IMG/VR virus record: IMGVR_UViG_3300042564_002870
DNA length: 20,000 nt
Source: an uncultured virus (IMG/VR IMGVR_UViG_3300042564_002870)
Lineage: Duplodnaviria; Heunggongvirae; Uroviricota; Caudoviricetes
Direction: 5' to 3' (one strand)
Below, in pieces: positions 1,300-16,937 of this stretch; positions within the stretch are counted from its first letter, which is position 1; the number at the start of each line of letters is the position of its first letter. The notes beneath the pieces were generated by a model. The model did no database searches, was not told the origin of the DNA, and saw only the letters and a program-made list of their open reading frames with translations. The position numbers and the translations under genes are program-made.

Positions 1300-1520
1300 T
1301 GGATCATTACAGCAACAAATTAGCATCCTTGAAATGGGCCGTGTCGGAGGTTCAAATCCTTCCTCTCCCACCACGGATACTGTTAGTTTATGACAACCTT
1401 TCTTGTATAAGATATTAATAGGCTTATATGGCGAGACAATTGGGTATAAACTAGCGTGCAGTATCTTTGATGGGAGAGTAGCTCAGGTAGTAGAGCAGGT
1501 TACGCAAAAAGTTGATCCAG
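1300..1520 (+). ncRNA. circularly permuted tRNA-Phe(GAA)-like gene inside a stem-CAGCAA cassette (copy 1)
   Basis: The 3' half (TTGAAAT..T-arm..CTCTCCC-A-CCA, 1329-1373) precedes the 5' half (GGGAGAG-TAGCTCAGGTAGTAGAGC.., 1472-1503); closed by TGGATCA/TGATCCA. Confidence 0.8.
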
Positions 1521-2401: not shown

Positions 2402-2515
2402 AGGATCAATACAGCAATTTTAACAACCAGTAGATTGTAGGTTCAAGTCCTACCTTAGATCACACAAGATCTTTGTGGCCAAATGGTAAAGGCAACCGGC
2501 AAATAAATGATCCTG
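2402..2515 (+). ncRNA. stem-CAGCAA cassette copy 2 with permuted tRNA module (YrlA-like topology)
   Basis: AGGATCA/TGATCCT stem; T-arm (2437-2453), then closed acceptor-like hairpin, then D-arm GCC-AAATGGTAAA-GGC. Confidence 0.75.
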
Positions 2516-5729: not shown

Positions 5730-5836
5730 AGTTTGTGTACAGCAATCAATTAAAATCATAGCATAGGTCGTAAGCTTCGGCAACAAGATCACAACAGTTT
5801 TCGATTTTCTGTCCAAAAAAGTAGACACACAAACTG
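5730..5836 (+). ncRNA. stem-CAGCAA cassette copy 6
   Basis: AGTTTGTGT-ACAGCAA..ACACAAACT-G; inner AAAATC/GATTTT and cTTCGg hairpin. Confidence 0.6.
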
Positions 5837-5841
5837 TTAAT

Positions 5842-5917
5842 GATCCCGTAGCTCAGATGGTTAGAGCATGCTCTCTAAAAGCAAATGTCGTGGGTTCGAG
5901 TCCCACTGGGGTCACCA
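5842..5917 (+). tRNA. amber suppressor-type tRNA (anticodon CTA)
   Basis: GATCCCG/TGGGGTC, canonical D and T arms, 4-bp stem TGCT-CTCTAAA-AGCA, CCA. Confidence 0.8.
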
Positions 5918-15569: not shown

Positions 15570-15764
15570 ATGACAGAGGTTGAATTAAAAGAAGCCAATA
15601 GATACTTCTGGATTGTGAAAGGTCATCTTATCCCGGACTCTTGGCGCGAAAAAGAAATCATGAGTGTATATAATGGTTACTTTGATCGTATCTGGGGTAA
15701 TCACGAAAATTGTGTACATGAATATGATTTTGAAGAAGCATATTTAAAAAGATGTAATAAATAA
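15570..15764 (+). CDS. hypothetical protein
   Basis: ORF; start uncertain (15540 or 15570); overlapped by a 20-aa ORF at 15521-15583 that has a GGAGG RBS. Confidence 0.7.
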   Translation: MTEVELKEANRYFWIVKGHLIPDSWREKEIMSVYNGYFDRIWGNHENCVHEYDFEEAYLKRCNK

Positions 15765-15774
15765 CTATGTAGTG

Positions 15775-16100
15775 ATGATATTCACTGAACACGTTCTGGA
15801 CTCGGGGGCGGTACCCGAATCGTCCACCACAGATACCGGTCAGTTTATGGAACCCTTGGATGTATGAAGCATTGCTATCATATGGCGAGATAAGTTTATG
15901 TAAACAAGACGATCGGTATCTTTGCTGGGCGATAAATAGGATCGACAGGCGCACTAGGCAGGATGGAGCTACCCGGCGAAAGCTCGGTTAACGCAATAAA
16001 ATAAGAAATGCAAATGAAAATTTCGCACCTAAGGCTTTTGCTCTAGCAGCATAAGTACTGTGGGTTGGCAACTTACCTAGAAACAGAAAAGTTGCATCAC
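15775..16100 (+). ncRNA. ssrA: two-piece circularly permuted tmRNA (alphaproteobacterial type)
   Basis: Acceptor piece ends ATCGTCC-A-CCA at 15829; coding piece starts GGGCGAT-AAATAGGATCGAC at 15927 (G3:U70); tag ANENFAPKAFALAA* at 16010-16054; outer ends approximate. Confidence 0.93.
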
Positions 16101-16127
16101 ACATCACACAACATAGAAAGGTCTATT

Positions 16128-16937
16128 ATGACATATGTAAATTTTCCAAAACTCCCAAACCAACAAGTAAATATTCTCCCGCATACAACACTTACTGTTT
16201 CAAAACCAACTGTATCACTTGCTGATGCGTTCAAGCCGAAACGCGCGGGTACAAAAACCTCTCATATTATCTTTGTTCTAGACGATTCTGGCTCAATGCA
16301 GTCCTGTCGTGCTGCAACGATCTCTGGCTATAACGAGTACCTACAAGCACAAAAGAAAGACGCAGTGGAGACGGGGATTCCAACCTTTGTTTCCCTTTAT
16401 AAATTTGACGGTTCGTCTGTCAACAGTGTTTTCAGTCGTGTTACTGTAGATGAAGTTCAAGATCTTAATGAAAAAACATATGATCCACAAGGTACCACAA
16501 ACCTTTATGATGCCATTGGTGGTGTCATGATGCAGATCAATAGTCAACTTTCTGCAAACAAGAAAGCAGATCGTGACTCTATCATTATCACTATCTTGAC
16601 TGATGGTGCAGAAAATGCTTCCAGAACTTTCAATAATACTACAGTCAAACAAATGGTGGAAAAAGCAGAAGGTAAAAACTGGGGCTTTATGTTCCTCGGT
16701 GCAAATATCAATGCATTTGCTGCAGGTTCTGCACTTGGTTTCAATTCCAATAATACTATGCAATATGATACCGCTTCAATGGGTAACACAATGCGTTCTG
16801 CATCTGCTATGACGTCTCGTATGAAATCAGCTTATGCGACTGGTGAATATAGTGGCCACGACGGCGTGGCAGCTCTTTATGTGGCAACTGCTTTTACTGA
16901 CCAAGAACGAACTGCTTCAGTATCAAAAGATGAATAA
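16128..16937 (+). CDS. von Willebrand factor A domain protein
   Basis: MIDAS motif FVLDDSGSM, GTTNLYDAIG, ILTDGAENAS, FMFLGAN. Confidence 0.92.
   Translation: MTYVNFPKLPNQQVNILPHTTLTVSKPTVSLADAFKPKRAGTKTSHIIFVLDDSGSMQSCRAATISGYNEYLQAQKKDAVETGIPTFVSLYKFDGSSVNSVFSRVTVDEVQDLNEKTYDPQGTTNLYDAIGGVMMQINSQLSANKKADRDSIIITILTDGAENASRTFNNTTVKQMVEKAEGKNWGFMFLGANINAFAAGSALGFNSNNTMQYDTASMGNTMRSASAMTSRMKSAYATGEYSGHDGVAALYVATAFTDQERTASVSKDE

Follow-up and report, generated by a model that had tools for sequence, protein, structure and literature searches.

Hairpin cassettes between CCA and +1 in the two-piece tmRNA gene and a permuted tRNA-Phe gene of an uncultured phage

The permuted genes of the window and their spacers

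IMG/VR virus record IMGVR_UViG_3300042564_002870 is an 80,190-bp sequence estimated to be about 40% complete. Pfam matches across its 132 reading frames, including gp59, UvsX/RecA, a late-transcription coactivator, topoisomerase II, heme oxygenase, bilin reductase, and a PstS-like protein, assign it to a T4-like aquatic myovirus. The window analysed here is a stretch of 20,000 nucleotides (nt) from this record (the minus strand of positions 22508-42507). The record carries 35 ordinary transfer RNA (tRNA) genes, 17 of them within the window, and one gene for transfer-messenger RNA (tmRNA), the ribosome-rescue RNA. Two genes of the window, the tmRNA gene and a gene for tRNA-Phe, are circularly permuted, and in each of them a spacer separates the upstream piece, which ends with an encoded CCA, from the downstream piece, which starts at nucleotide +1. 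An initial annotation of the window had proposed that the two spacers are homologous and represent a dedicated module of about 97 nt that enables permutation. The two genes consist of the following features.

1300..1306, plus strand: leader strand TGGATCA of the leader/trailer helix of the tRNA-Phe precursor, pairing with 1513-1519 in the minimum free energy (MFE) and centroid folds of 1296-1523
1307..1325, plus strand: conserved single-stranded box TTACAGCAACAAATTAGCA, between the leader helix and tRNA position 29
1326..1373, plus strand: tRNA-Phe(GAA) 3' piece, positions 29-76, from the ARAGORN cloverleaf of the joined pieces
1374..1471, plus strand: tRNA-Phe spacer of 98 nt, a hairpin cassette closed by GGATACTG/CAGTATCT and followed by the leader TTGAT
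1472..1499, plus strand: tRNA-Phe 5' piece, positions 1-28, with the acceptor 5' strand GGGAGAG, U8, the D arm, and G27-G28
1500..1519, plus strand: trailer, consisting of the conserved TTACGCAAAAAGT and the helix strand TGATCCA, from the precursor fold and the comparison with contig G003 (see below)
15714..15829, plus strand: tmRNA acceptor piece, ending with the encoded CCA (15827-15829), from Rfam and ARAGORN
15830..15926, plus strand: tmRNA intervening segment of 97 nt, a hairpin cassette closed by AGATACCGG/CCGGTATCT and followed by the leader TTGCT
15927..16098, plus strand: tmRNA coding piece, with G+1 at 15927, the 5' acceptor strand GGGCGAT, and the tag ANENFAPKAFALAA followed by a stop

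The tmRNA gene (15714-16098) is of the circularly permuted, two-piece alpha type. ARAGORN calls a permuted tmRNA, and the Rfam models RF01849 and RF04321 score 104.7 bits (cut-off 50) and 95.3 bits (cut-off 47), respectively. The acceptor stem, read directly from the sequence, pairs GGGCGAT with ATCGTCC and contains a G3:U70 pair, and the peptide encoded by the tag frame has a hydrophobic tail.

The permuted tRNA-Phe proposed in the initial annotation is real. When 1472-1499 is joined to 1326-1373, ARAGORN calls a 76-nt tRNA-Phe(GAA) with a complete cloverleaf; in genomic order, the gene is called by neither ARAGORN nor Rfam in the window. Permutation breaks the 5' strand of the anticodon stem between tRNA positions 28 and 29 and leaves the 7-nt anticodon loop intact. 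The 3' piece contains the 3-bp lower anticodon stem, the loop TTGAAAT, the variable loop, the T arm, the 3' acceptor strand, A73, and the encoded CCA. An ordinary tRNA-Phe(gaa), dissimilar to the permuted one, is also encoded in the record. The fold of the 228-nt precursor (1296-1523) has a z-score of -3.45, and none of 200 shuffled sequences folds as well; in this fold, ACCA and UGAU are nearly complementary and the acceptor stem continues into the spacer stem. A comparison of 1230-1580 with Rfam at E values up to 10 gave nothing informative and no match to a YrlA model, and none was found in the whole window at the gathering score. Promoter-like sites flank the unit, at 1196-1224 before it and at 1532-1560 after it. 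No relative of the permuted tRNA region or of the tmRNA was found by blastn among cultured phages, which matched the whole window only at tRNA-Pro.

The two spacers are homologous and have retained their hairpin structure through their divergence. Their boundaries were placed exactly in the initial annotation (CCA ending at 15829 and G+1 at 15927 in the tmRNA gene, CCA ending at 1373 and G+1 at 1472 in the tRNA gene), and the end-to-end homology that it described is borne out, with 68 of 100 columns identical in a MAFFT alignment of 1374-1471 with 15830-15926. The global alignment score is 30, as compared to -16.8 +/- 4.6 in 2000 dinucleotide shuffles (maximum 1; z = 10.2), and each spacer is the best match of the other across both strands of the 80-kb record. 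The shared block ATATGGCGAGA lies at 1426-1436 and 15880-15890, as had been reported. Both spacers fold as long irregular hairpins closed by GATACYG/CRGTATC (z = -2.6 and -3.2). In an RNAalifold model of the two copies together with the copy of a relative, both bases are changed in 5 of 40 predicted pairs, and 7 pairs have a mismatch or gap in one sequence; the two stem covariations that had been proposed were both recovered (columns 14/95, C-G to U-A; columns 43/59, G-C to A-U). With up to one mismatch allowed, the conserved 12-mer CATATGGCGAGA (15879-15890) has no other copy in the 80-kb record and no antisense match, and no Rfam family matches the cassettes.

Ends and interiors of the spacers in other phages

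Viral tmRNAs were collected independently of their spacers by means of a conserved 16-mer of the mature coding piece, which yielded 103 distinct sequences with an identifiable CCA. The spacers in this sample range from 3 to 247 nt in length (median 86). A closing helix stands in register in 72 of the 83 spacers that are at least 30 nt long: it begins 0-1 nt after CCA, ends 4-5 nt before G+1, and mostly comprises 10-12 bp. The last five bases of the spacer are TTGAT in 47 and ATGAT in 18, giving a leader consensus of (U/A)UGAU on the 3' side of the helix. Pairs 2, 3, 4, 6, 7, and 8 of the helix covary, as in AAACACA/TGTGTTT, AAGCACA/TGTGCTT, and AGATACA/TGTATCT. When the register was set from Watson-Crick pairs alone in 81 spacers, the non-Watson-Crick cells contained 52 G-U and 8 A-C combinations. 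This strand-specific excess indicates that the helix acts as RNA on the transcribed strand and not as a DNA inverted repeat. The spacer ends of the window thus belong to a conserved element that is always placed between an encoded CCA and a +1 site, in agreement with the initial annotation.

Motif scans gave a similar picture of the distribution of these ends. A viral scan for CCACCA-NN-GATAC...GTATCTTTG returned at least 118 loci with at least 93 distinct sequences; among the matches listed, nearly all were phage two-piece tmRNAs with like ends and very different interiors. The same pattern in 185,579 bacterial and archaeal species, with one genome each, gave 39 loci, of which three (L324, L340, L342) were real and lay on phage-like contigs, so the element belongs to phages and not to bacterial chromosomes. 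A metagenome scan for ATGGCGAGA...GTATCTTTG gave one relevant locus (L609) out of 118 among the matches listed, the rest being chance. In another viral motif scan with 102 distinct matches, CCA stood just upstream in 10, and only one of these (L297, a tmRNA) looked real.

The interiors of the spacers are exchanged among relatives and are optional. Several motif scans supplied at least 222 distinct tmRNA loci, from which 24,531 pairs were compared. At least 279 pairs have flanks that are at least 85% identical and interiors below 55%, which is the chance level; conversely, at least 43 pairs have interiors that are at least 85% identical and flanks below 75%. Among the matches listed, 49% of the 65 pairs with flanks at least 95% identical have unrelated interiors. 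The tmRNA interior of the window is itself 90% identical to that of its relative L014, with the mature tmRNA flanks being only 72% identical. Concerted evolution of the two spacers was considered as a general rule and was rejected: in three other phage records with a tmRNA and a permuted tRNA-like gene, the spacer pairs are unrelated (z = 1.8, -1.8, and 0.3, compared to 9.5 for the window pair in the same test).

These comparisons do not sustain the claim of a dedicated module. The orthologous permuted tRNA-Phe gene of contig G003 has an unrelated 64-nt spacer, a permuted tRNA-Arg gene of the same record has a spacer of 8 nt, 20 of the 103 sampled phage tmRNAs have spacers shorter than 30 nt, down to 3 nt, and the spacer pairs of the three records just mentioned share no relationship. 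The block TGGCGAGA, whose conservation had been expected, is limited to this lineage and one close relative. In a viral scan for it, 9 of 19 matches were real, comprising five tmRNA copies identical to that of the window, two of the L014 type, and two tRNA-Phe copies identical to that of the window, all from near relatives. Since the interior is optional and is exchanged among relatives, the two cassettes of the window are a lineage-specific copy between genes and not a module needed for permutation.

Hairpin spacers are also found between ordinary tRNAs. At 2222-2320 on the plus strand of the window, a 99-nt spacer between tRNA-Pro and tRNA-Gly forms a stem-closed hairpin of a similar general kind, with eight contiguous closing pairs, TACAATGG/CCATTGTA, located 4 nt after CCA and 9 nt before +1 and extended outward in the MFE fold. 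The spacer between Phe(gaa) and Glu elsewhere in the record is likewise a stem-closed hairpin, with GATACACTG...CAGTGTATC. The slot is therefore a general feature of CCA-to-+1 junctions that is not tied to permutation.

The contents of individual spacers are diverse. Small reading frames occur in the tmRNA spacers of L358, L365, L375, L418, and L431, and also in L390, L400, L421, L427, L437, and others; read by eye, one has about 38 codons with differences between loci mostly at third codon positions, and another resembles a small membrane peptide. The CCA-to-+1 gap of the L128 tmRNA contains three spacer hairpins in tandem; the two 18-nt pieces between them can pair as a 12-bp minihelix with ACCA-type tails. 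In L068, L107, L088/L158, L103, and L499, T-arm-like hairpins with GGTTCGAATCC-type loops stand beside the closing stem. Such hairpins suggest that some spacer cargoes may derive from tRNAs.

Origin and processing of the cassettes

The reading that we consider probable is that the CCA/+1 junction is a fixed slot with a covarying helix base and exchangeable cargo, and that the cassettes of the window are diverged copies of one hairpin cassette. In this lineage, recombination or gene conversion via the shared ends would have copied the cassette between the tmRNA and tRNA-Phe genes, after which the two copies would have diverged to 68% identity with the hairpin retained. RNase P is known to cleave tRNA and tmRNA precursors at +1. 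In the precursor, the nearly complementary ACCA and UGAU strands would join the acceptor stem and the spacer stem into one long helix; RNase P would presumably cut at G+1, freeing the 5' piece and leaving the hairpin on the CCA end, from which it may be removed either by a cut at the helix base and subsequent trimming by an exonuclease or by RNase P acting a second time. In the record's 35 ordinary tRNAs, CCA is encoded in all, U occupies position -1 in 31, and AU occupies -2/-1 in 19. As U or AU is common in front of ordinary tRNAs, the GAU and GCU that precede 1472 and 15927 represent the normal RNase P leader of this phage.

Several observations weigh against such a slot with freely exchanged contents. 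Pair 5 of the closing helix is A-U in 39 of 39 cases, a stricter sequence conservation than a plain clamp needs. The loci that reveal swapping are a sample among the matches listed and were partly selected on their GATAC/GTATCTTTG ends. Furthermore, among the matches listed, flanks are less conserved than the interior in 128 of the 145 pairs with interiors at least 85% identical, which fits purifying selection on some cargoes as well as it fits recent exchange. Since such selection is possible, "optional" need not mean "functionless".

Another proposal regards the cassette as a small passenger RNA that has its own function and is released by the flanking tRNA-processing cuts in the manner of tRNA-type punctuation. 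This proposal is possible but is not favoured here. It would account for interiors that often outconserve the adjoining mature tmRNA (0.90 versus 0.72 for L014, and the 128 of 145 high-identity pairs among the matches listed), for the five compensatory pairs between the window copies, for the small conserved reading frames in other sampled spacers, and for the whole tRNA-Ala reported inside a tmRNA spacer in the part of the source consulted (PMC11915505). However, choosing pairs by interior identity biases flank identity downward, half of the near-identical tmRNAs among the matches listed differ in cargo and some have none, CATATGGCGAGA occurs nowhere else in the 80-kb record on either strand even when one mismatch is allowed, and no Rfam family matches. 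It appears unlikely that the cassette is a miniature mobile DNA element bounded by terminal inverted repeats and directed at CCA/+1 junctions. Its conserved inverted ends and variable interior, its occurrence in tmRNA genes, permuted tRNAs, and inter-tRNA spacers, the three tandem modules of L128, the discordance of interior and flanks, and its near absence from bacterial genomes (3 of 39 loci real, on phage-like contigs, in 185,579 species genomes) would suit such an element; but the ends covary as an RNA helix with the strand-specific excess of 52 G-U over 8 A-C, the junctions show no target-site duplication, there is no linked transposase, and the register to CCA and +1 is the one that selection for processing would favour.

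The dedicated processing or protein-binding module required by permuted genes, which was the principal proposal of the initial annotation, is now very unlikely. The cassette is present in both permuted genes of the window, and the helix base and the leader are conserved in sequence over many phages; nevertheless, the orthologous tRNA-Phe gene has an unrelated interior, the tRNA-Arg spacer is 8 nt and some tmRNA spacers are just 3-29 nt long, the TGGCGAGA block is confined to this lineage, and comparable hairpins lie between ordinary, unpermuted tRNAs. It is hardly credible that the spacer holds a terminator and a promoter for separate transcription of the gene pieces, as no sigma-70-like promoter and no intrinsic terminator was found on the plus strand of 1374-1471 or 15830-15926, and the 3-11 nt spacers of relatives are too short to contain either.

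A scaffold of permuted tRNAs, a Ro60-fold protein, and comparison with known systems

More unusual than the cassette is a possible family of scaffolded permuted tRNAs in phages, with a possible link to a Ro60-fold protein. The permuted tRNAs share a leader/trailer helix and a ACAGCAAC box. Diverged orthologues of the tRNA-Phe gene are found in G003, which was aligned in full, and in L688. In G003 (a contig of 5,991 bp), the slot is filled by the unrelated 64-nt hairpin spacer mentioned above. The T stem has changed from GGAGG/CCTTC to GGTTG/CAACC and the leader/trailer helix from TGGATCA/TGATCCA to TGGGTCA/TGACCCA, both by compensatory changes; the box TTACAGCAACAAATTAGCA and the 5' piece (the equivalent of 1472-1499) are identical, and the anticodon loop, D arm, and acceptor are unchanged. 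The trailer differs by one substitution in a loop and one compensatory substitution in the helix. Compensatory changes next to an unrelated spacer show that selection maintains the permuted tRNA and that it can dispense with the cassette interior.

A scan for the scaffold gave 18 distinct matches, of which 6 were real, counting the window type, a tRNA-Arg paralogue, and the G003 orthologue. The paralogue lies in the same record outside the window, on the gene strand near position 45,062 (G000 C1, about 45,000-45,150), and its joined pieces are called by ARAGORN as tRNA-Arg(UCG). It has the leader AGGATCA, the box TTTCAGCAACAAATATGCA, which is near-identical to TTACAGCAACAAATTAGCA, the trailer TAGCAAAAAGT-TGATCCT, a break at 28/29, and an 8-nt spacer (TACACTGA). 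L688 has a third type of spacer, and L683 and L691 are scaffold members with spacers of 19 and 16 nt; boxes near-identical to TTACAGCAACAAATTAGCA are present in all three. L120 is an Asp-like member with the leader/trailer helix AGGTTCAC/GTGAACCT. A second group of RNAs (L498, L503, L521, L538) has the order helix, ACAGCAA, T arm, ACUCCCC-ACCA, spacer, GGGGAGU, and small hairpin, with no anticodon arm, and its helices covary (AGAATGTTT/AAACATTCT, AGATTGG/CCAATCT, AGGATATAT/ATATATCCT). ACAGCAA alone is not enriched in the window, with 4 matches compared to 3.8 expected, and is informative only by its position after the leader helix. Single 7-bp leader/trailer helices are not significant against shuffled sequences (e.g., 75 of 300 shuffles reach 7 bp). 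The leader/trailer helix is instead supported by its constant position and by compensatory changes across loci.

One further element of the window has a related organization.

2402..2515, plus strand: tRNA-like element with a sealed acceptor end and a Y-RNA-like topology, as read from sequence

Its order is leader AGGATCA, ATACAGCAA, T arm, the stem-loop TTAGATC-ACACAA-GATCTTTG, D-like arm, and trailer TGATCCT. The short stem-loop stands in for the acceptor, CCA, and spacer, and the ACAGCAA box and the leader/trailer helix are present. L316, which is the second permuted element of G003, has a leader near-identical to that of 2402-2515 and keeps GGGAGAG/CTCTCCC, CCA, and a 104-nt spacer. A below-threshold comparison of 2396-2530 with Rfam gave nothing informative, the tRNA model reaching only 17.9 bits.

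The record also encodes a DUF2828/DUF7788 protein of 487 amino acids (G000 C1:72816-74276; L142:12816-14276, minus strand), which PHROGs labels as "RNA-binding protein". An AlphaFold model based on 26 sequences, with a predicted local distance difference test (pLDDT) value of 75, has Ro60/TROVE structures as all of its top 11 Foldseek matches (E about 1e-8, probability 1.00, template modeling score about 0.5), and its predicted fold matches Ro60/TROVE plus vWA. The likeness was revealed by the fold search alone, and none was detected by sequence with phmmer, with a profile against the PDB, or in Atlas. YrlA RNAs usually have the Ro60 gene as a neighbour; here the gene is about 31 kb from the permuted tRNA-Phe, and its relatives in G007 and G001 are about 0.3-2 kb from the second-group RNA. 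Relatives of the protein were found in all four contigs of the second RNA group and in two of three further scaffold contigs, with a weak match (E = 4e-12) in one case and a match split into two parts in the other; the third contig, which lacks a relative, is a 27-kb fragment. None was found in five large tmRNA-bearing control contigs, which were not screened for scaffold RNAs, and these counts are confounded by phage relatedness. An RlaP-family nucleotidyltransferase is encoded at L141:10082-10975.

The shared scaffold and the Ro60-fold protein suggest Y-RNA-like biology, which is a lead and not a finding. In the YrlA Y RNAs, a rotated tRNA topology has been described, and in Mycobacterium smegmatis YrlA, RNase P cuts the loop that closes the 7-bp acceptor stem, after which CCA is added (Chen et al. 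2014, PMC4201824; this and the sources cited below were consulted in part). A tentative and somewhat doubtful reading places the permuted tRNA-Phe in a phage RNA scaffold family whose members either are Y-RNA-like partners of the Ro60-fold protein, perhaps with RlaP, or use the scaffold to guide a splicing-like maturation. The scaffold would consist of the leader/trailer helix, the ACAGCAAC box, and the 28/29 break, and its bodies would be Phe and Arg in this record and Asp-like or anticodon-less elsewhere. If its members resemble Y RNAs, the CCA/+1 slot would, by analogy with M. smegmatis YrlA, be the site where RNase P opens the acceptor end. Alternatively, the scaffold may direct trimming and nick-sealing into working tRNAs; scaffold-guided sealing, if true, would amount to a kind of tRNA splicing from permuted genes in a bacterial virus. 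The Pfam matches to the 132 reading frames included neither an RNA ligase nor an RtcB family, in a record that covers about 40% of the genome.

Other features of the window include a region at 5730-5835, between tRNA-Thr and a tRNA with the anticodon CUA, in which a 9-bp end helix (AGTTTGTGT/ACACAAACT) is followed by ACAGCAA and a degenerate T-arm-like hairpin. The CUA-anticodon tRNA (5842-5917) is labelled "Pyl" by ARAGORN and is an amber-suppressor-type tRNA within the phage tRNA array. Just 3' of the tmRNA, the reading frame 16065-16937 has a DxSGS motif of the vWA/MIDAS type and matches PHROGs phrog_7371, which has no function assigned.

The significance of these observations lies in the spacers of two-piece tmRNA genes, which are usually treated as disposable and which carry a conserved, covarying RNA clamp in a fixed CCA/+1 register. 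With its exchangeable cargo of hairpins, small reading frames, and, by report, tRNAs, the tmRNA slot would be a defined expression-and-release slot in phage genomes, and the same slot is found in circularly permuted tRNA genes of bacteriophages. The shared scaffold and its co-occurrence with the Ro60-fold protein make two questions testable, namely how bacteria and phages process permuted genes and what the Ro60-like proteins of phages bind. Literature searches found no description of phage permuted tRNAs or of a conserved or swapped tmRNA spacer, and paper supplements may list phage spacers.

The intervening sequence of two-piece tmRNA genes was reportedly described by Keiler, Shapiro and Williams in 2000.

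Compared to the two-piece tmRNAs of the literature, the window spacers occupy the same place, separating the CCA that ends the acceptor piece from +1 of the coding piece, and are likewise able to carry cargo. In the portions of the publications consulted, spacers are described as removed by tRNA-processing enzymes and absent from mature tmRNA, their cargo includes one tRNA-Ala and one repetitive element (PMC11915505), and two-piece tmRNAs are reported in marine myophages (PMC9004378). The covarying closing helix in a fixed register, the exchange of cassettes, and the presence of the same cassette in a tRNA gene set the present spacers apart from these partly consulted descriptions.

Permuted tRNAs are reported, in the parts of the sources consulted, in algae and one archaeon (PMC3978253), with one in a prasinovirus (PMC3673656). 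Like those of Cyanidioschyzon merolae, green algae, the archaeon, and the prasinovirus, the tRNA-Phe gene has its 3' half upstream, followed by a linker, and gives a cloverleaf on reassembly. The algal and archaeal genes are described there as using a bulge-helix-bulge, a splicing endonuclease, ligation, and a circular intermediate; the present gene differs from them in its bacterial host, the 28/29 break in the anticodon stem, the leader/trailer helix, the ACAGCAAC box, and the encoded CCA. No 3-4-3 bulge-helix-bulge was visible at the 28/29 break by inspection, no dedicated search having been made; the break is flanked by a 7-bp leader/trailer helix and a possible inner helix of 4-5 bp. Compared to YrlA and other Y RNAs, as far as the source consulted describes them, the tRNA-Phe unit has the same rotated connectivity, with the RNA ends forming a helix in the place of the anticodon arm, and the phage record encodes a protein with a predicted Ro60-like fold, although its gene lies about 31 kb away. 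Unlike YrlA, the unit comprises an entire tRNA-Phe, including a true anticodon loop and an encoded CCA, together with a long spacer, and the motif GNCGAAN0-1G was not seen in its leader/trailer.

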